The notes under the pieces are model-generated. The model worked only from the letters and a program-made list of their open reading frames with translations, did not search any database and was not told where the DNA came from. DNA of 27,140 bases, taken from NCBI GenBank assembly GCA_046570105.1, contig JBKHVI010000014.1:23780-50919 (forward strand), in the 5' to 3' direction. This document shows, piece after piece, positions 1 to 23,921 of this stretch; within the stretch, counting starts at the first letter, position 1, and each line of letters opens with the position of its first letter. Source of the DNA: Bacteriovoracia bacterium. GTDB taxonomy: Bacteria; Bdellovibrionota; Bacteriovoracia; Bacteriovoracales; Bacteriovoracaceae. The translations under genes were made by a program, and so were the position numbers.

Positions 1-1955
1 AGTGGCGTGAACATGAAACGCTCCACCGCCACAAACGTCAGAGTAAATTCCATACCAGCAAAGGCGGTGATAAAAAAGAAATAGGCCAAGTTGGTTTTAT
101 TCACACCCGGAAACGGTAATCCTTGGAAGAGCTTAAAGGGATTAGCTGTGCGATGCAGACCCTCACCACGCCCACGCTTCTCTGGCGGCAGTGTCTCTGG
201 AAATTTCGTCAGCACCAAAATGAAATTCAAAAGCCCCAAGACTCCGGCAATGAGAGCGGCCACTGAGAAGGGATTCACTCCGTACTGAATAAGCTCAGGG
301 TAATAAACCGTCAGATCAAAGAGAGCAGAAATACCACCAAGAGCAGGTCCGATAATAAACCCAAGCGCAAAAGCGATACCAATGACTGCCATCCCTTTTG
401 AGCGATTTTTCTGATCAGTCACATCGGCAACAACCGCTGAAGCAATCGAGAGATTTCCACTCATCAAACCACCAATAGCTCGGCCAAGGATCAAAAGCGT
501 GAATGAACCGGCAAAAAACCACAGGCCATAACTTAAAAACAAACCCAGAATAGAAATGACGAGCACCGGTTTGCGACCCACTTTATCTGAGATCGCGCCC
601 CACATGGGAGCAGCGACAAATTGCAAGAGTGAATAGAGCGCGCCGAGGATGCCACCAAAGAGCACGATCGAGCTGGCGGAATTAGCGAGCGCGCCTTCAC
701 CACCGAAAGTTTGCAGATCACCCACCAAAGAGAAAATCGCTTTCAAAAAAACGTTATCAGCATCTGTCGCCAGATAATGTTTTGCCAGCGCGGGGAACAT
801 CGGGAAAATTATTGAGAAGCCGATGAGATCCAGGAGCATAGTAAGAAACATCAGCTTCAATACACCCTTGGATTCTTTACTCATGGGTTCAGGGCGCTGA
901 GTTTTTAAATCTTCCATATGAATTTCCAAATCCTTCTTGATATCGATCGTGTGATAGAGCGCTTCTCGCTCCTCACTATTTCCGTTCGCAGTTACATTGA
1001 TAAAATTCGCATAGTCTTTGATCCAAGCGGGTTCCGCATTGAGACACGGAATCGCCGTGAGTTTACCACCGTGCTCTTCCACCATCTCTTTGAGCTCATG
1101 ACCGATTTCATCGGTGGTCTCCAAGCAATCCACCACAAAACTTGGGCAATAAACCGCGATGTGTTTTTTGCCTTCCACTTTTACCATGTGTTCAACCGTT
1201 TCATCGGTATAGGGCCCGAGCCATATCTCAGACCCAAAGCGCGATTGAAAGAGCATACGCATGGGGTAATTTCTCTCTTCCAGCCCCTTTTCAATCAGCT
1301 TATAAGTTTCCAAGCAGTGGCGGAAATAAAGATCACCCTTATCCAACACACGTCGCAAGGGGATGCCGTGAAAAGAAATCACCAACATGTCGGGTTGATT
1401 GTTTTTAAGACTCTCTTGTATGAGTCTCACCGAGTGATCAATAAAACATTTGGCGCGATGATAAGAATCAATAACCGTGAATCCGGGAATGTTCACGCGG
1501 TTTTTAAATTCATGGCCGAGCCCATCCACCACCGAGGCAATCGTCGATTCGGCGTACTGAGGAAATTGGGGAAAGACGATGACTTTTTGTGCTCGTGTCT
1601 CCACTGGCTCTTTTTCCCAATCGTCTAAGATTTTTCCTGGGCGCGGATCGGCCAATAAAAAACAGTGGTTAATTTCCAGATTTGGCGCCAAGTGCGGGCG
1701 AATGCCATCAGCGACAAGTTTGGTGGTTTTAACCAAAGGGAAACCGGAACCATCCCAGATTCGTGAGTAGAGTTTGGCCGAGCGCTTGGGGCGAAATGGT
1801 AAAATAAAAAGGTTCAAAATGAGAAACCATAACCAGCGTGGGACATCCACTACCCGGGGGTCAGCGAGAAATTCCCTCAAGAAAGCACGCACATCCGAGG
1901 TAGATGGGCTTTTGGGTGAGCCTAATTGGCCAATGATTATCTTGGTCTTGGTCAT
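1..1955 (-). CDS. hemH: Ferrochelatase fused in frame to a TetA/DHA1-like MFS transporter (3' end runs off the window; >650 aa)
   Basis: Manual translation from ATG 1955 (SD AGGA) shows no stop down to base 1. aa 1-~320 carry ferrochelatase motifs QLGSP, FLADPRVVD, PQYA, SFHGIP (H196), FQSRFG..WLGPYT, CPSFVVDCLET (E279), PCLN. After a polar linker come MFS motifs LDLIGFSIIFP, motif A WGAISDKVGRKPV, motif B LILGRAIGG and motif C GFIIGPALGG. Confidence 0.9.
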   Translation of the reverse strand, partial: MTKTKIIIGQLGSPKSPSTSDVRAFLREFLADPRVVDVPRWLWFLILNLFILPFRPKRSAKLYSRIWDGSGFPLVKTTKLVADGIRPHLAPNLEINHCFLLADPRPGKILDDWEKEPVETRAQKVIVFPQFPQYAESTIASVVDGLGHEFKNRVNIPGFTVIDSYHRAKCFIDHSVRLIQESLKNNQPDMLVISFHGIPLRRVLDKGDLYFRHCLETYKLIEKGLEERNYPMRMLFQSRFGSEIWLGPYTDETVEHMVKVEGKKHIAVYCPSFVVDCLETTDEIGHELKEMVEEHGGKLTAIPCLNAEPAWIKDYANFINVTANGNSEEREALYHTIDIKKDLEIHMEDLKTQRPEPMSKESKGVLKLMFLTMLLDLIGFSIIFPMFPALAKHYLATDADNVFLKAIFSLVGDLQTFGGEGALANSASSIVLFGGILGALYSLLQFVAAPMWGAISDKVGRKPVLVISILGLFLSYGLWFFAGSFTLLILGRAIGGLMSGNLSIASAVVADVTDQKNRSKGMAVIGIAFALGFIIGPALGGISALFDLTVYYPELIQYGVNPFSVAALIAGVLGLLNFILVLTKFPETLPPEKRGRGEGLHRTANPFKLFQGLPFPGVNKTNLAYFFFITAFAGMEFTLTFVAVERFMFTP

Positions 1956-4511: not shown

Positions 4512-4838
4512 ATGAAGAAGTCAACTAAGACTAAACCGACAAAATCGTCCCAGTATTCGGACATTAAGACCTTCACCTACTTTATCGCCTCCCCTCCAAA
4601 GCGAAAGACCGGGTATCGCGAGCGGGAATTCGACAAGATCATGCATGGAATTTTGAGTGAAGGGCACGAAGTTTTGGATTGGAAGATGCAATCGGTGAGT
4701 GACGGTGTGTATGTCATCTTTATGTTGAAGGGTACTAAAAAAGAAAACCGTGGTGCGGGCCTTGACCTCCATGAGAAATATGGTCTCGCCGATCGCCATA
4801 GCGACTCGAGCTTGGAATTATTGGATGATGAAAATTAA
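4512..4838 (+). CDS. Hypothetical protein, 108 aa
   Basis: Strong SD GGAGAGAGG before ATG. First of three overlapping + strand genes. Confidence 0.75.
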   Translation: MKKSTKTKPTKSSQYSDIKTFTYFIASPPKRKTGYREREFDKIMHGILSEGHEVLDWKMQSVSDGVYVIFMLKGTKKENRGAGLDLHEKYGLADRHSDSSLELLDDEN

Positions 4839-6084
4839 ATTTCTCACTCTCTTATTAGTGATCGCAGGATGCAGCCAAGTACTGCAGCGCTTAGAGCTTG
4901 AGTCGGAGATTCCTCGCTCGCCTATTCAAACTGCCAGTGAACTAACCGCCTGTGCTCGCCCCTCTTTACGCTTACCTCAACTCGTTGGCTCTAATCCCAA
5001 AGCTCAGCGTGGCTTCACTGACTTTCTAAAAGAATTAGAAGACCTCAAATTAGATTTCATTGAAAAAACTGTGCTGTGGTCACTCTTACAAATGAACATT
5101 CGACCGGATCTTGCCTCACCCACGGCACGTTTTCAATTTCTTGTCCGGCAAAATGAGCAAAGTCTCTATCGGGACTTCTCTATGAGTGAGAAAGGTGGCT
5201 ACCCTTTCTTTACCGGACTCAATGATCTTTTGAAAAATCATCCTAAGAAACGTGGACTTCATTGGTATGCCAAGCTTTTGGATGACAAATTCAAAACTGA
5301 AATTGTAGCTGGAAAAACGCTTGAACTAAGATTGCGTGAAATGAAAGCTGTCTTGGGCCCTGAGCCCATTTTGCGACGCCATTTTTTTCGCGGCGATGAA
5401 CTCATTCGCGAAAGCGAGCGCCTCTCGAAAGTAAACTTCCAAAAACTCGTCAAAGCGGCTCAAGAAAAGAGTGTTCCTACACCCATGAACGAAACGCTCT
5501 TCTCATATCGAAAAACACCTCAGCTCGATGTTCGCTGTAATTATGATTTCACGCTCTACGACAACTCTATTTTCTTAATTGATAAAGACGAGAACGTCGG
5601 CCACCTCTTTGGACTCACCCAAGGTAAAGATGCCTTCTTAGCAGTCGTAGCTCAAAAAACTAACGAGCCCAAGGCGCTCTTTGGTGAAGCCGTCATTGAA
5701 GGGACGGCTAAAGTTCGCTCGAGCGCATTTTGTCTGATTAAGTCCCAAGCCGAAGAAATTTGGGTCACCTCCAATCAAAGCCGTGATCCCGGCCAGCATG
5801 TCTATCACCTTTTCCGTTATGGGCTCACTAAAGCGCATACCCCTGAAGATATTCAGCGCCTGCTTCGTCACTCACGCCATATGTTCCTCTCCGACCCTCT
5901 GCGCTTGGTGATTGAGAGTTCCCGCAGTCGTGACAATCAAATCCAAGAACTCTTGAAACTCAATGTTCCCATCTATAATGCAGAGTCTATGGGCAATATT
6001 TGGGCCTGGAGTGATTTAGCGAATGAAGGTGGCCGCTTCTTTATTGATGATCGCAACCCTGGAGCACTGTTTTGCGCTCCATGA
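4828..6084 (+). CDS. Hypothetical lipoprotein (~418 aa)
   Basis: Start re-placed at ATG 4828 (or 4825): MKIKFLTLLLVIAG|C lipobox. No recognisable catalytic motif. Confidence 0.75.
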   Translation: MKIKFLTLLLVIAGCSQVLQRLELESEIPRSPIQTASELTACARPSLRLPQLVGSNPKAQRGFTDFLKELEDLKLDFIEKTVLWSLLQMNIRPDLASPTARFQFLVRQNEQSLYRDFSMSEKGGYPFFTGLNDLLKNHPKKRGLHWYAKLLDDKFKTEIVAGKTLELRLREMKAVLGPEPILRRHFFRGDELIRESERLSKVNFQKLVKAAQEKSVPTPMNETLFSYRKTPQLDVRCNYDFTLYDNSIFLIDKDENVGHLFGLTQGKDAFLAVVAQKTNEPKALFGEAVIEGTAKVRSSAFCLIKSQAEEIWVTSNQSRDPGQHVYHLFRYGLTKAHTPEDIQRLLRHSRHMFLSDPLRLVIESSRSRDNQIQELLKLNVPIYNAESMGNIWAWSDLANEGGRFFIDDRNPGALFCAP

Positions 6085-11661: not shown

Positions 11662-12222
11662 TTATAAGGCCAAGCGACATAGGGGCAGAATGAAGGCCTC
11701 TGGGCAAGATGTTCCCACTGATTCTGGATGAAATTGGTAAGTCAGAGCACGCTTATGGGAGAGCATCACCCACTCACCACCCTCCTCCCAGCCACTCCAC
11801 TCTCGCGGCAATGTACGTGCTGGAACTCCTAGTGAATTATAGCGCTGAACTTCCACTTGTTTGGGCCATTGGAATTTTTTCTGCCACATCGGCGGCACCT
11901 TCCATACAAATGATTCACCATGAGCAGGCCTGTTTGATCGTTCAACAGCAAGTCCTAAAAAGCGGGCAATAAATTGATGACCTAAGCAGATGCCCGCCAT
12001 AGGAATTCCCGTCTTCCACCACGCCATGATTTTTTCTTCGATACGATAATCATCGGGGTGACCGGGACCTGGTCCTAAGACTAATAAACTTGGCGATCGT
12101 GTGGTAGGCAGTGTCCATTCACGCCAAGGGATAATGCGACATTCAACGCCTTGTCGCAAAAACTCAGCAGCGATGTTGTAGGTAAAACTATCATCAAAAT
12201 CAACTAACCAAACTTGTGCCAT
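11662..12222 (-). CDS. Class I glutamine amidotransferase, PabA/TrpG-like
   Basis: Motifs DFDDSFTYNI, GPGPGHP, GICLGHQ (nucleophile Cys), RYNSL and FHPES. TAATG overlap with the lptD stop places the start at 12222. Confidence 0.88.
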   Translation of the reverse strand: MAQVWLVDFDDSFTYNIAAEFLRQGVECRIIPWREWTLPTTRSPSLLVLGPGPGHPDDYRIEEKIMAWWKTGIPMAGICLGHQFIARFLGLAVERSNRPAHGESFVWKVPPMWQKKFQWPKQVEVQRYNSLGVPARTLPREWSGWEEGGEWVMLSHKRALTYQFHPESVGTSCPEAFILPLCRLAL

Positions 12223-14642
12223 TACTGCATCCGTTGCATACGAAACCAATCACGTCGATAGCTCGCAAAACGTTCATCACCAAAGTTAAATAAGACGTTA
12301 AAGCCGTAACGGAATCCAACCAGTGATTCTTGGTAATTGAGACTTAAAATCCAGCAATTATTATGAGGCATGATATCCAGCGCGTAGACCGTGCGAATAT
12401 CGTCACGTGCTTCAAGGTCTACTTGGCGAACATAGGAGAGCCCAATGGTATCCGTTGGTCGAACCTGAATACCTGCGGAAAGAGTATTCAAGCGACGTTC
12501 TTCGAGAGAGTTATAATTATAGGCCGTTAAGAGATTTAAAAAATCGAACTCACGTTGCCACGCCATTTGAAACAAGTGTTGGCTGTTGCGATGGAAAAAA
12601 TACTCCGAAAAAGACAACGACCATTTGGCCGCCAGATACCCGGCCTTAACCGCAAGACGAGTAAGCTTATCGCGTAAATCATCAAACTCTTGGTCAAATA
12701 AATAACCTTGCGAGACATTAAAATATCCCTTCTTTTGATAGGAGAAATTATCACGAAGATAGCGCTGATCGGTGCGCCAGTCGGTGGCCTTGGGTGATTT
12801 ACGAATCAAAACATTGTTCCACTGAAACTCAAGCGTGTTGGAAGGCGGAATAACCGTTCGAGTAATGTTGGCACCGAGCAAGTATTCTTGCGAACGAACC
12901 GCATCGGTATAATCAAACCACCCACTGTTTTCTTGAATCTGATTTAAGAATACGGGGTTCCCTGATTCCGTCTCAGAAGTGATGAAGTGATGAATGAATT
13001 TATATTCTTGTGAGTAACGATAGGCCTGTCTCGCCACCATCACACCGTCGTTTGTTAAACTCGATTCAAACGGAGGAAGTTTACCTACCAGTTTTGTTTT
13101 CTTCTGAGCACGAGTTAAGGGCTTAGGACCTGAGCGCTCTTTTTCGCGCATTCTTTTGAGGTAGGCCTTTGGTAAGTTTTGTGCCGGAATTTTTTCTTCA
13201 AAAGCTAAACCAAATATTTTATCAACCGTAAATGAGGCTTCTGTTCGTAAGAGAGTGGCACTCTTCTCAGCACCAAACTCACTAGAAGCTTCTGGAAAGC
13301 GGTATTTTTGATAATCAAACGTCGCCTCAGTTTTTACCCCGAGCGGTCCCCAATTAAATAAATGCCAGCCCAAATAAGGTTTGGCGGTAAAACGATCAGC
13401 GTCACGGATAGGATTTGACTCTCGATTCTCCACACGTCTAAAACGCGTAAAACTACCATCCACACCGGCGTAGATATGTCGCAAGAAAGGCATATCACTT
13501 TGAATCAGCGTAAAAGGTGTAGTCCCAAGACTCACGCGTGGAAGCGTTTGCACATAGTCGCGATCAAATTCTTCGGGATCTGCAAAGAGTTGGTTGCGCG
13601 AGTATTCACTTTGTAGGCTTAGGGCCCAACGCTCTCCTCGCCCATCCACAAAACCATTAAAGCCAAAATCACTCGAGTTCACTCGATTATCTGTATACAG
13701 TGGATGGTCACGCACGATATCGAGGTCTCGTGTATCGGTGAAGCGCATATGGTGCGACCAGTTGGGATTCCAATACCAATGATTTTCTACATCGCCAAAA
13801 TAACGAGTGTAATTACGGCCGGACTCGCTTAAATCATTCTTACCTGGCAGATAAATCGTGTCGTTCAAAAATCGGCCATTACCTTCGAACCAACGTTGAG
13901 GCGCAAAACGTTGGCGATATTCGAGATCTGTTCCATAACCTCGCTTCGCCCAAAAGGTCGGAGTGATAGTGGCGTCTTTGTCTTCATCAATCGCCCAGAA
14001 GACTGGTTGCTCAAGCGAAAGACCGACTCCGTTTTGTGAAGAGATGCGAGGAAAGAGAAGACCCGATTTTCTTTGCGAGAGCGGCACCACCATATAGGGC
14101 AAGTAGAGAACGCTCACGCCTTTTATTTTGGCCAGGCCGTGATAAATCTCGGCGCGCTCTTTGAGATAAATCAAAATTTTTCGGCCATAGACTGACCAAG
14201 ATTCCGTACAATCACGACAAGTGGTAAATTCAGCATCACGAGCTTCAATCAACCCGCCAGGGCGACGATACAATTCACGAGAGACAACATTAAACTGTGG
14301 GTGAACAATGCGTGCATTCTTTACTTGGGCATAACCCGAGGCCGCATGATACTCAAGCTGAGAACCATAAAGTGTTAAGTCTTGAGTAATGAAGCGAACA
14401 TTTCCATCCACCTTAAAGATCATCGTGCGTCGATCAAAAGTGGCAGACTCTCCGTAGAGAGTGTCTTTCTCATTGACTACAACGACGTTACCGACGGCTT
14501 CAAAAACGTCCCCTCCTTCCTTACGGAAAGCACGATCAGAAAAAATGGAAAGGGTATCACCGAGTTGAAACTGAGGAGTGGCCGCTTGCAGTTGATTGAT
14601 GAGTAGGAGCGTGACGCAAATGATCTTGCAGCATGCCCACAA
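12222..14642 (-). CDS. lptD: LPS-assembly outer membrane protein LptD (start uncertain)
   Basis: N-terminal OstA-like jellyroll (AVGNVVV, FTTC..C), RKSGLLFP, YRQRF, C-terminal NNCW and beta-strands. A TTG at 14642 gives a plausible signal peptide. Confidence 0.88.
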   Translation of the reverse strand: MWACCKIICVTLLLINQLQAATPQFQLGDTLSIFSDRAFRKEGGDVFEAVGNVVVVNEKDTLYGESATFDRRTMIFKVDGNVRFITQDLTLYGSQLEYHAASGYAQVKNARIVHPQFNVVSRELYRRPGGLIEARDAEFTTCRDCTESWSVYGRKILIYLKERAEIYHGLAKIKGVSVLYLPYMVVPLSQRKSGLLFPRISSQNGVGLSLEQPVFWAIDEDKDATITPTFWAKRGYGTDLEYRQRFAPQRWFEGNGRFLNDTIYLPGKNDLSESGRNYTRYFGDVENHWYWNPNWSHHMRFTDTRDLDIVRDHPLYTDNRVNSSDFGFNGFVDGRGERWALSLQSEYSRNQLFADPEEFDRDYVQTLPRVSLGTTPFTLIQSDMPFLRHIYAGVDGSFTRFRRVENRESNPIRDADRFTAKPYLGWHLFNWGPLGVKTEATFDYQKYRFPEASSEFGAEKSATLLRTEASFTVDKIFGLAFEEKIPAQNLPKAYLKRMREKERSGPKPLTRAQKKTKLVGKLPPFESSLTNDGVMVARQAYRYSQEYKFIHHFITSETESGNPVFLNQIQENSGWFDYTDAVRSQEYLLGANITRTVIPPSNTLEFQWNNVLIRKSPKATDWRTDQRYLRDNFSYQKKGYFNVSQGYLFDQEFDDLRDKLTRLAVKAGYLAAKWSLSFSEYFFHRNSQHLFQMAWQREFDFLNLLTAYNYNSLEERRLNTLSAGIQVRPTDTIGLSYVRQVDLEARDDIRTVYALDIMPHNNCWILSLNYQESLVGFRYGFNVLFNFGDERFASYRRDWFRMQRMQ

Positions 14643-15807
14643 AATAGTATGACCCCACCACCAAGATGGATTGCGAAGTACCGCCTGCGAGTTGTTGAAT
14701 AAGCTCATTCCATTCATGGACATACTTGGTATGCACTCCTTCGTCATACCCCCACCAGCCTGAAGGCGCTGCCGCCTTCAAATGCGAAAAGCGTGTGATG
14801 TTGAGCTGAGTTGACTCATTACTAAGTCTTTTCAGCATCCGAACCATTGCCTTTAAATCGGCAACTGGCCGCTCGGAAAAAGCACCCCACACCTGATGGA
14901 AAAACTCCTTCCCTTGATTGTAGGAACTCGACTGCAGAAAATGAACCAATTTCCTCACTCCGTCAGGATTATGTGAGCCGTAAAATGTGAAGCGATGGCC
15001 CTGCCACTCCATCACCTCCCCTCGACCGGGGAAAGTTTGTGACGAACATTCAACCTCTGTTTGAAAAAGTGACCGCCACAACTCTCCTGCGAGCCTGCGA
15101 TTGCGCTCAGAAAAGCCGGTATGACAGCTGATAAGCCCCTCATGAAACAGATCCTGCCACTTGATAGCGAGAGGCTTTATATTTATCGCTGTTTGCTCTC
15201 GTAGGTAGACCGATTCCAAGGCCGAGACAAGAGTGCAATTTGGTCGGGTAACTCCCAACTTCTCGCGCAAAATCTGATCAAACCGAGAACCCAGGAATTC
15301 TTGATGATCTCGCGAAATTGAGGTCAATCCCACCACCTGAGCGTCACAGAGGCTCACTGCATCAAAGCGGCCACCCAGGCCCACTTCTAAAATCCAAAGT
15401 TGAGCTTTTTTGGAAAGCCCCCATCGCAGAAATGTGGCCCACAGTGCTTCGTAGTAACTCAATCCGACTTGCTGATGCGCGCGCTTTTCTTCTCCGGCCA
15501 GCAACAATGTTTCCAATTCCTGCAAACTGATCTCACCCTCATTGGTTTGAAAACGTTCACACACTGAGTGAAGATGAGGCGAAGTCCAGAGGACAAAAGA
15601 GATTCCCTGTTCACGCGCTAGCTGCGCCAAGGTAAAAGCTGTTTCACCTTTACCGTTAGTTCCGGCAATGGTGACAATTTTAGGATTAAGATTTTTGAGT
15701 TGAGCTAACTCATCCCGGAGAAACCCACCGACTCGCTCAAGACCTGGACGAAATTTTTCCGCCCCGTATAGCTGCATAAGCCAGTGCTGTAACTCTTGAG
15801 CGGTCAT
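14557..15807 (-). CDS. folC: Dihydrofolate synthase/folylpolyglutamate synthase
   Basis: Motifs IAGTNGKG, TSPHL, EVGLGGRFDA, SRDHQEFLG, SHNPDG and GSYY. Follows accD. Confidence 0.92.
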   Translation of the reverse strand: MTAQELQHWLMQLYGAEKFRPGLERVGGFLRDELAQLKNLNPKIVTIAGTNGKGETAFTLAQLAREQGISFVLWTSPHLHSVCERFQTNEGEISLQELETLLLAGEEKRAHQQVGLSYYEALWATFLRWGLSKKAQLWILEVGLGGRFDAVSLCDAQVVGLTSISRDHQEFLGSRFDQILREKLGVTRPNCTLVSALESVYLREQTAINIKPLAIKWQDLFHEGLISCHTGFSERNRRLAGELWRSLFQTEVECSSQTFPGRGEVMEWQGHRFTFYGSHNPDGVRKLVHFLQSSSYNQGKEFFHQVWGAFSERPVADLKAMVRMLKRLSNESTQLNITRFSHLKAAAPSGWWGYDEGVHTKYVHEWNELIQQLAGGTSQSILVVGSYYFVGMLQDHLRHAPTHQSTASGHSSVSTR

Positions 15808-16849: not shown

Positions 16850-16867
16850 GCCCTTGAGGTGGTTTGT

Positions 16868-19249
16868 ATGCGGGGATTCATATCCTTTCTTTTGACAATG
16901 TTTATTGGGATGCCCAGTTTTGCCTTCGCGCAAAACGAAGCACTAGGTTTTGATGTCATTGACTACCACTCCTTTCAAGAACTCCCCCGTGAAAGTCAAC
17001 GTGAGTACCTCGTGCTCATTATGGATACTGTTGTTGAGATGGAACAAGCTCTGATTAAAAAACCAGCTGCCGACGAAAAACGTCGAGTTGAAATCCTTAA
17101 AAAACTTCTTAATGAACTGATGATCGATTCAGCTTATGCTTCTTATCCATCCGGCAGCTCGAAGAGCTGTTTGTATGCCGGTTGGTTTTCAACTTACGTC
17201 AACACAAGTGCAACGACTGGCTATTGTAATCGTCCGCAGAATTCAAGCGACGCCAATGTTAAGAGCAATTACCGTCCAGTAAGCGCAAAATGCAGCTCCT
17301 CTCAACAGGCCTGTAATCCGGATATCTTTGGAACAAGTGCCGATGGTAAACCTTATTGTATCAATATCAATAAAGTTAAAGACGTGAATGCATCACTTTC
17401 TTGTCTGATCGCTTTTGAAGACGATGCCGATAAGCTTGGGCGTCTCGATCGTATTATTGATCGTCTTGGTAAAGATGCAGCAGCGGCAGATCGTTTCAAC
17501 AAAGTCGTACAAACTATTTTTAATACTTGTGTATGCCAAGATAATGCTAAGGATGACGGGAACAATGTTCAAATTGCCCAAGAATATTTTAATTATATGC
17601 AAGGACATAGAACTTGTTATTCCCTAGTGGCGCAAACTCAGCATATCGCCGAAAGACTTAAAACGAATAAACCTAATGCTTGTTTGGTGATAGATCCAAA
17701 TAACGTCGATATTTTGGCCAAAGATTTGAAAGTACTTTCTCATTATACTTTACGTCTCAGAGACGTAGCGAATCTTAACAATATGACCACTGAAGCCATC
17801 ATGATCAGAGGTCATAGCTCTGATCCACGTAAAACGATCAAAGTACCAGGCGGTGGCTCCGGTGGATTTGTTTTAAAATCTGGAGCAACGGCTGTTGATT
17901 ACGATAAAGACTCGGCGATTGATAATTGTTTGGCCAAGATGCGTGATCCATCGAGCCCAATAACATGTACCCTTCCCACTGGCGGCAGCTTGTCAGATAA
18001 AAAGCATTGCCCCTTCGAGCTTCCACCAGTCACAAATCATACCTGTAAAGTAAAAGTCACTCCCGGTGTTATCGCCGACGGAAAAATGAATTTCGATGCT
18101 GTTTTAGAAATAGCTCCCAATGGCGCTGCCTTAGATAATATTGATGTCCATTGGAAACTGGGAGAAGAAGCTCCCAAAACATCAAAGGGTGGCAAATACT
18201 CAGGCAGTGTTGCTGTCACAGGGACGACTGCCAAAATTCCACTTAGCGCAAAACTCACGATTGCCGGTAAAGAGATTCCCTGCGCAGCACCTGTGGAAGA
18301 TTTCCAAGGTGTCGTTGATGATAAAATCAAGTCCTGTGAAATCGGTGAGGCCAGTGCCACAATTAAAGATGGAAAACTTGTCATTACCACGACCGTCAAA
18401 GCTCTTCCTCCAGGAGCGAAAGCACCTGCTCCTAAGTGGAAGGTCGGAGAAGAGACAAAAGATAGCTTAGAATTTGCTCTACCTAAAGATGATGTCAATG
18501 AAGTCGAACTCACAGCACTCTATGCAGTCGAGGAAGTGGGTAAACCGGCCATTGAGTGTAAAAAAATGGTACCGATCATACGCGCTGAAACTCGCAAGTG
18601 TGTCGTCGCAGAACCAAAACTTGCTCGTGTAGATGGTAAGCCTAAGGCCCGTAAAATCACTGCCACTATCAAAATGGCAGAAGACGCGATGGTGCTAAAA
18701 GAAGGCGAAGTATTCAAGTACCAAATTGCTCCTGACCTCACCAATCATGAAGGTGCAGCTGTAAGCCAAGAAAAAGAATTTGATACGGAAAATCCTGAAG
18801 TCAAAATTATTGGTATGTTGGTCAAAGGTCAACAGACTTTGGCCACTTGTGATGCCTCAGTAAAAGACGAAGCTCCTCAAGCGCCAGGGAGCTGTACGCT
18901 CACGCCGATTTTGGCCTTAAATGATAAAGGCGAAGATATTATCGAAGTGTCACTCACCTCGTCTGGTGCCGGTAATGAACCTAAGGGTGATGTGGTCTTC
19001 ACAGGATTTGAATTTAAAAACTCAAAACCAAAAGTGGCCTCTGTTGTGATCAAAAAAACACCTGCCGCCCAGAAGAAGAAAATTAATGCCACTTATAAAA
19101 ATGAAGCTGGCCGAGAGTTTAAATGTGAAGTGGGCGTTGAGATTCCTGCCGCTGAAGCGCCAGCTGCTCCAGTGGGACCGATGCCTGGTCAACAGCAGCT
19201 ACCACCTTCTATGCCTGTACCGGATATTTTCCTTCAGGGCGTAAACTAG
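16868..19249 (+). CDS. Large secreted Cys-rich protein with four C-terminal Ig-like repeats (~793 aa)
   Basis: SD GAGGTGG; signal peptide (AFA|Q); Cys-rich N-domain; four ~90-aa beta-rich units each bracketed by a Cys pair; Pro-rich tail. Confidence 0.85.
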   Translation: MRGFISFLLTMFIGMPSFAFAQNEALGFDVIDYHSFQELPRESQREYLVLIMDTVVEMEQALIKKPAADEKRRVEILKKLLNELMIDSAYASYPSGSSKSCLYAGWFSTYVNTSATTGYCNRPQNSSDANVKSNYRPVSAKCSSSQQACNPDIFGTSADGKPYCININKVKDVNASLSCLIAFEDDADKLGRLDRIIDRLGKDAAAADRFNKVVQTIFNTCVCQDNAKDDGNNVQIAQEYFNYMQGHRTCYSLVAQTQHIAERLKTNKPNACLVIDPNNVDILAKDLKVLSHYTLRLRDVANLNNMTTEAIMIRGHSSDPRKTIKVPGGGSGGFVLKSGATAVDYDKDSAIDNCLAKMRDPSSPITCTLPTGGSLSDKKHCPFELPPVTNHTCKVKVTPGVIADGKMNFDAVLEIAPNGAALDNIDVHWKLGEEAPKTSKGGKYSGSVAVTGTTAKIPLSAKLTIAGKEIPCAAPVEDFQGVVDDKIKSCEIGEASATIKDGKLVITTTVKALPPGAKAPAPKWKVGEETKDSLEFALPKDDVNEVELTALYAVEEVGKPAIECKKMVPIIRAETRKCVVAEPKLARVDGKPKARKITATIKMAEDAMVLKEGEVFKYQIAPDLTNHEGAAVSQEKEFDTENPEVKIIGMLVKGQQTLATCDASVKDEAPQAPGSCTLTPILALNDKGEDIIEVSLTSSGAGNEPKGDVVFTGFEFKNSKPKVASVVIKKTPAAQKKKINATYKNEAGREFKCEVGVEIPAAEAPAAPVGPMPGQQQLPPSMPVPDIFLQGVN

Positions 19250-20043: not shown

Positions 20044-20874
20044 CTAGTCTTTTGCGCCCTTCATCAGTTCGGCATAAATTTCCTTAGAGGGACGCTCGAG
20101 TATCTCCCCTAAGAGACGAGATAAATCTTTTTTACCCGCACCTTCAGCAAGAATATCCAACGCCTGCTGTAGGACATTAGGCGGAACTCTCGGACGTGGG
20201 TCTTTAGGGATATGAACTAACCAGACAAACTCTCCACGCTCCATCATTTCATCAAGAGCGACCAGCCCTTCGGGCCCTTGAAAGCGACGCACTTTCTGAT
20301 AGGTCTTGCCCATCTCTTTCACGATAGCAAATTCACTCTCTGCCCACACTTCCACCGCCATCGCCAACGTTTGACGAATGCGTCCCGGAGCTTCAAAAAA
20401 AATATGAGTGCCGGCACCAAGAGAAGAAAAATAAGAACGAATCTTTCCTTCATCGCGCGATAAAAATCCATGAAAGCTAAAAGGCAATGGTGGTAAACCT
20501 GAGAGTTCAAGAGCAGCAATGACACTCGAGATTCCCGAAAAAGTTTCCACCTCAACGCCTTTCTCATAGGCCAATCGCACTAAGGGAAAAGCTGGATCTG
20601 ACAGAATGGGACTCCCCGCTTCAGAAGCGACATAAAGATCATGCCCCTGCCAAACCACTTCTAGTAAACGCTCAAACTTGGCATCAGAGCTTTGGTCGTG
20701 CAGCGATAAAAGATGTTTATTTTGTGAGTTGATGCCATTGCGATGAAGAAATTCACGAAATGAGCGTGTGTCTTCCACCGCAAAATAGCTGCCATTCTCC
20801 AATGCATCTTTCACCCGAGCGGTCATGTCGGCCATGTTGCCGATGGGCATATTAAGCAAAATGAGACGGGCCAT
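20044..20874 (-). CDS. rsmI: 16S rRNA (cytidine1402-2'-O)-methyltransferase
   Basis: Motifs PIGNMADMT.R, EDTR, SEAGSPILSDP, FHGFL, FEAPGR and KEMGK.YQ. Confidence 0.9.
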   Translation of the reverse strand: MARLILLNMPIGNMADMTARVKDALENGSYFAVEDTRSFREFLHRNGINSQNKHLLSLHDQSSDAKFERLLEVVWQGHDLYVASEAGSPILSDPAFPLVRLAYEKGVEVETFSGISSVIAALELSGLPPLPFSFHGFLSRDEGKIRSYFSSLGAGTHIFFEAPGRIRQTLAMAVEVWAESEFAIVKEMGKTYQKVRRFQGPEGLVALDEMMERGEFVWLVHIPKDPRPRVPPNVLQQALDILAEGAGKKDLSRLLGEILERPSKEIYAELMKGAKD

Positions 20875-23333: not shown

Positions 23334-23921
23334 TTAGGGGGAACAGAGGCTTCGTGCCAAACGATCACTATAAATAGCAACCGCAGAGCGAACCGACAGA
23401 TGGTTGTAACCGTCTACTGCCCTACTTAAAATAGGGAGCAAGCGGAAATCCGCTTGATCAGTCATCGAGGCGAGTAATCCCCAGCCGGTACCAAATAACA
23501 GGAGGATGGGCGTTTGGTCAAGGATGGCGCGCTGAGCAAGTGCATTTTCATCTCCATCGCCTGCTAAATTCGCCCCGGTCACTACTGTGAGTGGCTTTTT
23601 TCCCTCGCGTTCAGTGATGACTCTCTGCGCATCTTCTACTGTGTTTAACAGCTGAGTTTGCGCCAAGGCCTCGGTGCGATCGGGATTATAAAGTGAGCCT
23701 TTATCGCTCTCCCAATGCCCCAGGATGCGATTCACTAGCTCATGCTGAATCTGTAGTGGCGTGATGATGAAATACCCGGAGAAGCCAAAGGTGCGTGCTG
23801 CACGTGAGATGTCGTGAATATCTAAATTGGTCACCGAGGTGGTGACGGTTGAGCCGGCCTTGTCTTTCACCGGGCCATGCACAAGTCCTAGATAGACCGG
23901 AACTTTTAGTGCTTCTTCCAT
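23334..23921 (-). CDS. SPOUT-class RNA methyltransferase (Methyltrn_RNA_4/DUF2168 type)
   Basis: Motifs LVHGPV, TTSVTNLDIHDISR, LLFGTGWGL and YNHLSVRSA. Follows trmD. Confidence 0.85.
   Translation of the reverse strand: MEEALKVPVYLGLVHGPVKDKAGSTVTTSVTNLDIHDISRAARTFGFSGYFIITPLQIQHELVNRILGHWESDKGSLYNPDRTEALAQTQLLNTVEDAQRVITEREGKKPLTVVTGANLAGDGDENALAQRAILDQTPILLLFGTGWGLLASMTDQADFRLLPILSRAVDGYNHLSVRSAVAIYSDRLARSLCSP

Follow-up and report, generated by a model that had tools for sequence, protein, structure and literature searches.

The stretch of DNA analysed here (the window, 27,140 nucleotides) comes from a Bacteriovoracia bacterium and corresponds to G000:C14:23780-50919, genome G000 being an assembly of 3.0 Mb in 131 contigs that is 87.8% complete. 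At its left end, on the minus strand, lie the first 651 codons (3..1955) of a gene in which a ferrochelatase (hemH) is joined to a transporter of the major facilitator superfamily (MFS), and which runs on past window base 1. An earlier note, made from the letters of the window alone, had described a minus frame without stop from the ATG at 1955, with both domains in that frame, and an open reading frame (ORF) leaving the window. Both readings hold. The frame is stop-free from ATG 1955 to base 3 over 651 residues, and reading it on along G000:C14 leads to a stop at L001 966, outside the window. The entire fusion gene extends over L001 966..3455 of G000:C14 and counts 829 codons, among them 34 X that result from a run of exactly 100 N at L001 1401-1500, ending at the base directly before window base 1. 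As a complete reference we used P0002, a protein of 799 amino acids that is 97% identical to the window fusion. P0002 has four residues (LDNA) where the G000 assembly gives 34 X; the frame is thus preserved, with a true gap of about 10 nt and a real protein of about 799 amino acids, and related fusion proteins are also about 799 amino acids long. A shadow ORF (918..1628, plus strand) lies opposite the ferrochelatase-coding strand.

The ferrochelatase (HemH/PpfC) domain covers residues 1-322 (990..1955, minus strand), as delimited by Pfam, NCBIfam and alignment. PF00762 matches residues 5-318 over positions 3-312 of the 317 in the profile (E 1.3e-77; 261.3 bits for a cut-off of 27), and the NCBIfam hemH equivalog TIGR00109 reaches 218.4 bits for a cut-off of 124.6. 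In an alignment to human ferrochelatase chains, His196 (codon at 1368..1370, minus strand) and Glu279 (1119..1121, minus strand) pair with the catalytic His and Glu, which we take to be H263 and E343 in the human numbering. The earlier note had reported this pair as retained, and it shows no variation in 49 of 49 fused proteins aligned or in 16 of 16 sequences of alignment A2. Human His341 is matched by Cys277, and the best sequence match of the enzyme half in the PDB is 2po7, a human His341-to-Cys variant according to its Foldseek title. The motif HCFLL (1653..1667, minus strand), located by alignment to canonical enzymes, replaces MRYG. The replacement of AMRY by HCFLL had been read correctly, but it is a general trait of the subfamily: F or Y followed by two aliphatic residues takes the place of MRYG throughout, stand-alone members included. 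MRYG is kept in the canonical stand-alone HemH of G018, another genome of the order, and in a HemY-HemH fusion, P0254. The fused enzyme is the sole PF00762 match found in G000. Of the other pathway proteins searched there, HemB and HemF (the oxygen-dependent coproporphyrinogen oxidase) gave matches, whereas HemE and HemJ gave none, which may be due to the 12% of the genome that is missing. Judging from its sequence, the enzyme half is probably a working housekeeping protoporphyrin ferrochelatase, predicted to insert iron.

Between the PF00762 and MFS domains, residues 323-362 (870..989, minus strand; ANGNSEEREALYHTIDIKKDLEIHMEDLKTQRPEPMSKES) form a linker whose length, 40 residues, agrees with the approximately 40 proposed at first sight and recurs in 41 of 49 fused proteins. 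The linker has a median identity to P0002 of 27.5%, versus medians of 65.9% and 64.4% for the two halves of the fused proteins, which appear to evolve at an equal rate. The AlphaFold2 model of P0002 predicts a helix at residues 340-353, inside the linker. In P0123, a member of a deep fused lineage, the linker carries a Cys-rich insertion (alignment A1, columns about 400-425).

The transporter half is an MFSD10-like, DHA1-type MFS domain. The window contains its residues 363-651 (3..869, minus strand), which take in the first transmembrane helix (TM1) and those up to about TM7, while TM8-TM12 fall outside. MFS_1 (PF07690) matches residues 369-645 (E 2.4e-29), up to the window edge. Motif A (GAISDKVGRKP, residues 453-463; 567..599, minus strand) and the antiporter motif C (GFIIGPALGG, residues 532-541; 333..362, minus strand) are both present; following the usual motif definitions, we take the former to lie between TM2 and TM3 and the latter in TM5. 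The count of transmembrane helices, which had been called for, was made in the AlphaFold2 model of P0002 (mean pLDDT 86.2, pTM 0.68), since a crude hydropathy scan split the helices badly. The model has 12 long helices after residue 360, arranged as two six-helix bundles, at 360-381, 426-459, 461-480, 485-512, 518-543 and 564-584 (TM1-TM6) and at 616-647, 651-680, 682-701, 706-734, 737-769 and 771-790 (TM7-TM12). In 49 fused proteins, D457, G460, R461, G532, G536, P537 and G540 of motifs A and C are invariant, as are Asp376, Arg492 and Glu636 (49 of 49), which the model places in TM1, TM4 and TM7. Among solved chains, the stand-alone orthologue of genome G021 (same order) matches human MFSD10 (6s4m) with E 9.8e-63, the next chain following at 1.8e-11. 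Foldseek likewise ranks 6s4m first (E 5e-21, 32% identity, TM-score of 0.80 on the target). The resemblance to TetA put forward in the earlier note must be narrowed: the DHA1 type and motif C stand, and the likeness to TetA is one of superfamily only. Indeed, the Tet(A)/Tet(B)/Tet(C) pump model (NF012174) was rejected, at 113 bits for the partial protein of the window against a cut-off of 475, and the complete G021 orthologue is no Tet pump either (164 bits against the same 475). The transporter half is predicted to be a complete 12-helix DHA1-type MFS protein and a working transporter whose function is independent of the enzyme. A complex prediction between the HemH domain (1-325) and the MFS domain (360-799), using 49-row alignments, returned a score of 0.00 in both runs; controls were not run, and the result is uninformative either way.

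The fusion is real, old and widely kept. P0002 served as the query against 187 genomes of the order, each with a completeness of 85% or more, and one best match per genome was retained. The match spans the junction in at least 150 of the 187. The outcome that the earlier note had named as fatal to its claim, close relatives all carrying two separate genes, is therefore not what is seen. Of 150 junction-spanning matches listed, 149 are stop-free and one, in G156, has a TAA in the linker. In a word-indexed database search, all 120 matches listed carry PF00762 together with PF07690, with lengths of 668-813 amino acids, and ten fused representatives at the 50%-identity level extend down to 41% identity. 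Sequencing reads assembled elsewhere agree: in Logan contigs from two other studies, window positions 1-1955 lie on a single contig of run X2, which differs by 42 substitutions and is free of indels, positions 1-1049 are covered by one contig of run X3, and no indel is listed in any of the four sequencing runs compared. None of the runs listed with this sequence is registered as an RNA dataset. The check across the junction that had been proposed therefore comes out in favour of a single gene. Among named Bdellovibrionota loci, including Bacteriovoracaceae, seven of eight are open from HemH to the end of the MFS. Such proteins have been deposited under database names such as 'ferrochelatase [Bacteriovoracaceae bacterium]', which indicates that their annotation names just one of the two halves. 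That two genes were joined through a frameshift, misassembly or overlooked stop could be suspected from the 100-N run inside the MFS half of the assembly and from the linker stop of G156. Nevertheless, with 149 genomes uninterrupted across the junction, seven of eight named loci open, contigs from other studies crossing it without indels and P0002 bridging the N run in frame, an assembly chimera was rejected; for the junction, an artefact is refuted to the point that what probability remains is negligible.

Across the order, the locus takes several forms. Most genera have the fused form, and queF (PF14489; 2010..2546, plus strand), divergent from the fusion in the window, neighbours fused, MFS-only and HemH-only forms across the family. 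In G025, a 0.9-Mb genome of the sister family f2, hemH and the MFS gene are separate and overlap by 4 nt, and the adjacency of hemH and MFS likely predates the fusion. The history that best accounts for these forms would start from neighbouring, overlapping hemH and MFS genes, pass through one early fusion in the family, and continue with several splits and losses of one half.

What such a chain could do may be outlined as follows. A single protein of about 799 residues unites three parts: the one ferrochelatase that G000 was found to have, some 40 residues of linker, and a 12-helix MFSD10-like DHA1 transporter. MFS proteins begin in the cytoplasm, so that the enzyme would sit at the inner membrane on its cytoplasmic side. 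The fusion would keep ferrochelatase close to the membrane into which protoporphyrin IX and heme partition, and the transporter would remove an amphipathic organic anion from the cytoplasm or the inner leaflet. Heme and protoporphyrin are dicarboxylate anions. A tetrapyrrole would be the best single candidate substrate, either heme destined for the periplasm or surplus heme or protoporphyrin released through a safety valve, given that the fusion has been retained for long, that an operon state preceded it and that MFSD10 is labelled an organic anion transporter. Export rather than import is favoured by the DHA1 motifs, although direction is not readable from sequence. Efflux or delivery of a tetrapyrrole by the fused transporter is plausible on these grounds, and we put it forward tentatively, with somewhat more doubt than confidence.

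Observations made both within the order and beyond it weigh against this reading. To begin with, the two halves are separable. In G082, HemH stands alone beside queF, with a different gene downstream, and in G156 (L019, G156:C80) an in-frame TAA at codon 354, in the linker, leaves adjacent hemH and MFS genes; this stop reflects a split of recent date or else an error in sequencing. The MFS gene stands alone beside queF in G018, G021, G142, G080, G071, G081 and G093, and alone in G141, without queF within the locus. G018 and G093 combine it with a different, canonical stand-alone HemH. In a quick tree built by maximum likelihood from 96 MFS domains, the MFS-only proteins do not group together but fall between fused ones, in one supported clade (SH-aLRT 97), and the fused label needs six changes, at least four of them forced by well-supported branches. 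From this distribution we infer that a single fusion was later undone several times by splits or by loss of a domain; repeated independent fusions of the same two subfamilies with the same linker would be less economical, though the tree by itself is compatible with them. Besides G156, L067 is probably also split by a stop, and three other genomes of the G156 genus are fused.

There are also lineages that keep the transporter although no heme-synthesis genes were found in them. No PF00762 match was found in 15 of the 187 genomes, and HemB (PF00490) was searched in 11 of these, G188, G023 and the fragmented G087 and G088 (420 and 610 contigs) being left out. HemB is present in G005 and G107, whose fused gene therefore probably falls in an assembly gap. 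Six genomes of six genera (G021, G080, G081, G141, G142 and G071; 88-99% complete) gave neither PF00762 nor PF00490 and have the MFS gene alone, with queF beside it in five of the six; their MFS-only proteins, at 46-58% identity, keep all conserved residues. The other three, G130, G134 and G207, gave no HemB and no match to P0002, and hence no MFS of the same kind. In G021, HemE and HemF were not found either. This genome has a heme-copper oxidase (COX1), and with no heme synthesis found it would need heme from outside.

Such genomes invite a reversal of direction, in which the MFS would import prey-derived protoporphyrin or heme, the fused enzyme would metallate the porphyrin, and the heme-less relatives would import heme. 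The named relatives are Bacteriovoracaceae, which are predators, and Haemophilus influenzae, which keeps ferrochelatase only, can grow on protoporphyrin. Retention of the MFS in six of the nine genomes found without HemH and HemB, together with the need for heme in COX1-bearing G021, would agree with such salvage. Yet motif C and DHA1 features, which are typical of exporting proton antiporters, point to export, three heme-less genomes are also devoid of the MFS, and Verrucomicrobiota have the same MFS without a predatory lifestyle, so that we regard salvage as quite unlikely.

The same heme-less relatives would still need iron, which bears on another proposal, namely that the MFS delivers ferrous iron to the enzyme as a one-chain analogue of the mitoferrin-ferrochelatase complex. 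A precedent exists for a ferrochelatase complexed with an iron importer: a physical complex of ferrochelatase with the mitochondrial iron importer mitoferrin was reportedly described by Chen et al. in 2010. The nearest relatives of the MFS, however, are an organic anion transporter and drug:proton antiporters, not known iron carriers, and nothing in the analysis ties its family to metals, which makes a role in metal supply very improbable.

Beyond Bdellovibrionota, the transporter occurs in surroundings of another kind. An alignment of 23 stand-alone representatives led to 80 named loci, of which eight are the Bdellovibrionota fusion and 72 are others, mostly from Verrucomicrobiota (Opitutales, Puniceicoccaceae, Coraliomargarita) with some from Planctomycetota; their identity to the query is about 46-59%. 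Fused, MFS-only, Verrucomicrobiota and Planctomycetota forms all share the same conserved MFS residues. A ferrochelatase gene adjoins the MFS in none of these 72 loci, one of which has a weak ferrochelatase match about 4.4 kb from it. Directly upstream and on the same strand, 45 of the 72 carry a CoaD-like gene of the cytidylyltransferase fold, about 160 amino acids long and at a distance of about 200-800 bases from the MFS match (loci L026-L105). Further upstream, on the other strand, PgsA-like genes are found in 26 loci and PgpA-like genes in 21. As these loci are kin, the CoaD/PgsA/PgpA context is weak evidence of function.

It is here that the strongest competitor of tetrapyrrole transport arises, according to which the MFS carries an unrelated housekeeping substrate, a lost stop joined two overlapping neighbour genes, and nothing is gained beyond a membrane tether for ferrochelatase and its production in step with the transporter. 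Cyanobacterial and plant ferrochelatases gain a membrane helix through fusion to a CAB domain, and several of our observations accord with a similar anchoring role: the lone MFS keeps all its conserved residues in heme-less relatives, Verrucomicrobiota and Planctomycetota; it follows a CoaD-like gene, with no adjoining ferrochelatase, in 45 of 72 outside loci; the fused locus has descendants reduced to HemH and others reduced to the MFS; the overlapping genes of G025 represent the precursor state; and the sequence of the linker is poorly conserved. Against mere anchoring stand the retention of the fusion in at least 150 of 187 genomes and in representatives as distant as 41% identity, the constraint on linker length (40 residues in 41 of 49), and an adjacency of hemH and MFS that is older than the fusion. 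In addition, a 2026 review of heme synthesis (PMC13564367) describes stand-alone protoporphyrin ferrochelatases as membrane-associated; such enzymes thus get to the membrane with no 440-residue anchor. Taken as a whole, a pure anchor seems possible and rather unlikely.

Returning to the tetrapyrrole, an obligate coupling of enzyme and transporter is disfavoured because the MFS stands alone in heme-less relatives, the enzyme stands alone in one relative, and no ferrochelatase adjoins the MFS in Verrucomicrobiota and Planctomycetota. A role in heme trafficking rather than in heme synthesis would fit all observations, and a mere membrane anchor would fit them too. A bolder version can be formulated, in which MFSD10-type MFS proteins would be heme or protoporphyrin translocators and the fusion the single-chain counterpart of the mitochondrial metabolon of ferrochelatase and transporters, new heme being handed straight to the exporter; this we consider improbable, without dismissing it.

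Some features of the window and of the genomes compared deserve mention for their own sake. In genus g9, the canonical stand-alone hemH of G018 (G018:C4, L012 2056..4220) overlaps an upstream gene of the amine-oxidase fold, with hemE and hemB on the same contig, and HemF was not found in this genus (G018), which hints that its late heme route differs from that of the window genome. P0254 (784 amino acids) joins an amine-oxidase-fold (HemY/PgoX-like) domain to a C-terminal, MRYG-bearing ferrochelatase and thereby fuses two consecutive steps of the pathway. In the window itself, a Pfam scan detected no heme-related gene in the neighbourhood of the fusion. A weak TP_methylase match (20044..20874, E 5e-15) presumably corresponds to a protein of the rRNA methyltransferase type. 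Four long ORFs have no Pfam match at E 1e-5: 12222..14747 (minus strand, 841 amino acids), 14557..15807 (minus strand, 416), 16859..19249 (plus strand, 796) and 4750..6084 (plus strand, 444). A gene for a PF09936 S-adenosylmethionine-dependent RNA methyltransferase (23334..23921, minus strand) is inserted between trmD and rplS in an rpsP-rimM-trmD-rplS cluster. Finally, a short contig of the same bin carries a COX1 fragment with six in-frame TGA codons (G000:C123:26-679), which looks like a foreign piece reading TGA as an amino acid.

The route by which heme leaves the place where it is made and passes through membranes still counts among the open questions of the field, and heme trafficking figures among the new questions in the summary of the 2026 review (PMC13564367, available sections). 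The fusion singles out one defined transporter family, with a human member, MFSD10, whose substrate is unsettled. Fused, split, enzyme-only and transporter-only loci constitute natural controls, some of them in lineages without heme-synthesis genes found. Should the link with tetrapyrroles be true, a direct test of heme or porphyrin translocation would open; should it extend to MFSD10, a substrate would be at hand for this orphan human protein, and the missing inner-membrane heme translocator of bacteria would be named. If the transporter acts as an anchor only, the family would show clearly how two neighbouring genes can stay fused for long while sharing no substrate. No report of a ferrochelatase-MFS fusion was found in the literature, judged by titles and the beginnings of abstracts. 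In the 2026 review, the terms 'MFS' and 'major facilitator' have 0 occurrences and HemH-HemQ is the only fusion mentioned (PMC13564367). The earlier note, whose author knew of no characterised protein with this architecture, is consistent with both sources. New here are the natural variants of the locus (split, reduced to the enzyme or reduced to the transporter), the retention of the transporter in heme-less lineages, and its non-heme context in Verrucomicrobiota.

Compared with known systems, the enzyme half resembles HemH/PpfC (PF00762, TIGR00109; human and yeast structures such as 2po7, 1hrk and 1lbq) in its full-length match above cut-offs and in its catalytic His and Glu, and differs from it in being fused at its C-terminus to a 12-helix transporter and in the replacement of MRYG, as in its whole subfamily. 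With the DHA1 antiporters Tet(A)/(B)/(C), NorA and MdfA, the transporter half shares the 12-helix MFS fold and motifs A and C, yet its 113-164 bits fall far below the equivalog cut-off of 475 for Tet pumps. Its nearest solved relative by sequence and fold is human MFSD10/TETRAN (6s4m, deposited as 'organic anion transporter'), a likeness established by best match. Unlike the window protein, MFSD10 is stand-alone and eukaryotic, and its physiological substrate is unsettled; among the literature listed from 2019 on, titles and the beginnings of abstracts revealed no link between MFSD10 and heme. MacAB-TolC, which exports protoporphyrin in E. coli according to the available part of PMC4263509, offers a precedent for bacterial export of surplus protoporphyrin, although it is a tripartite pump of the ATP-binding cassette (ABC) type without a link to ferrochelatase. 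A ferrochelatase in a fusion has a precedent in CpfC-ChdC (HemH-HemQ) of Cutibacterium acnes, which led to the discovery of the role of HemQ (PMC13564367, available sections); there, the partner is the soluble enzyme of the next step, whereas here it is a membrane transporter. In the heme metabolon, as the same sections describe it, mitochondrial ferrochelatase is joined to inner-membrane transporters (PMC13564367). Like the complex of ferrochelatase, mitoferrin-1 and ABCB10, the fusion physically joins a ferrochelatase to inner-membrane transport, but the mitochondrial assembly is non-covalent and relies on SLC25 and ABC carriers, whereas a single chain with an MFS transporter takes their place in the window.

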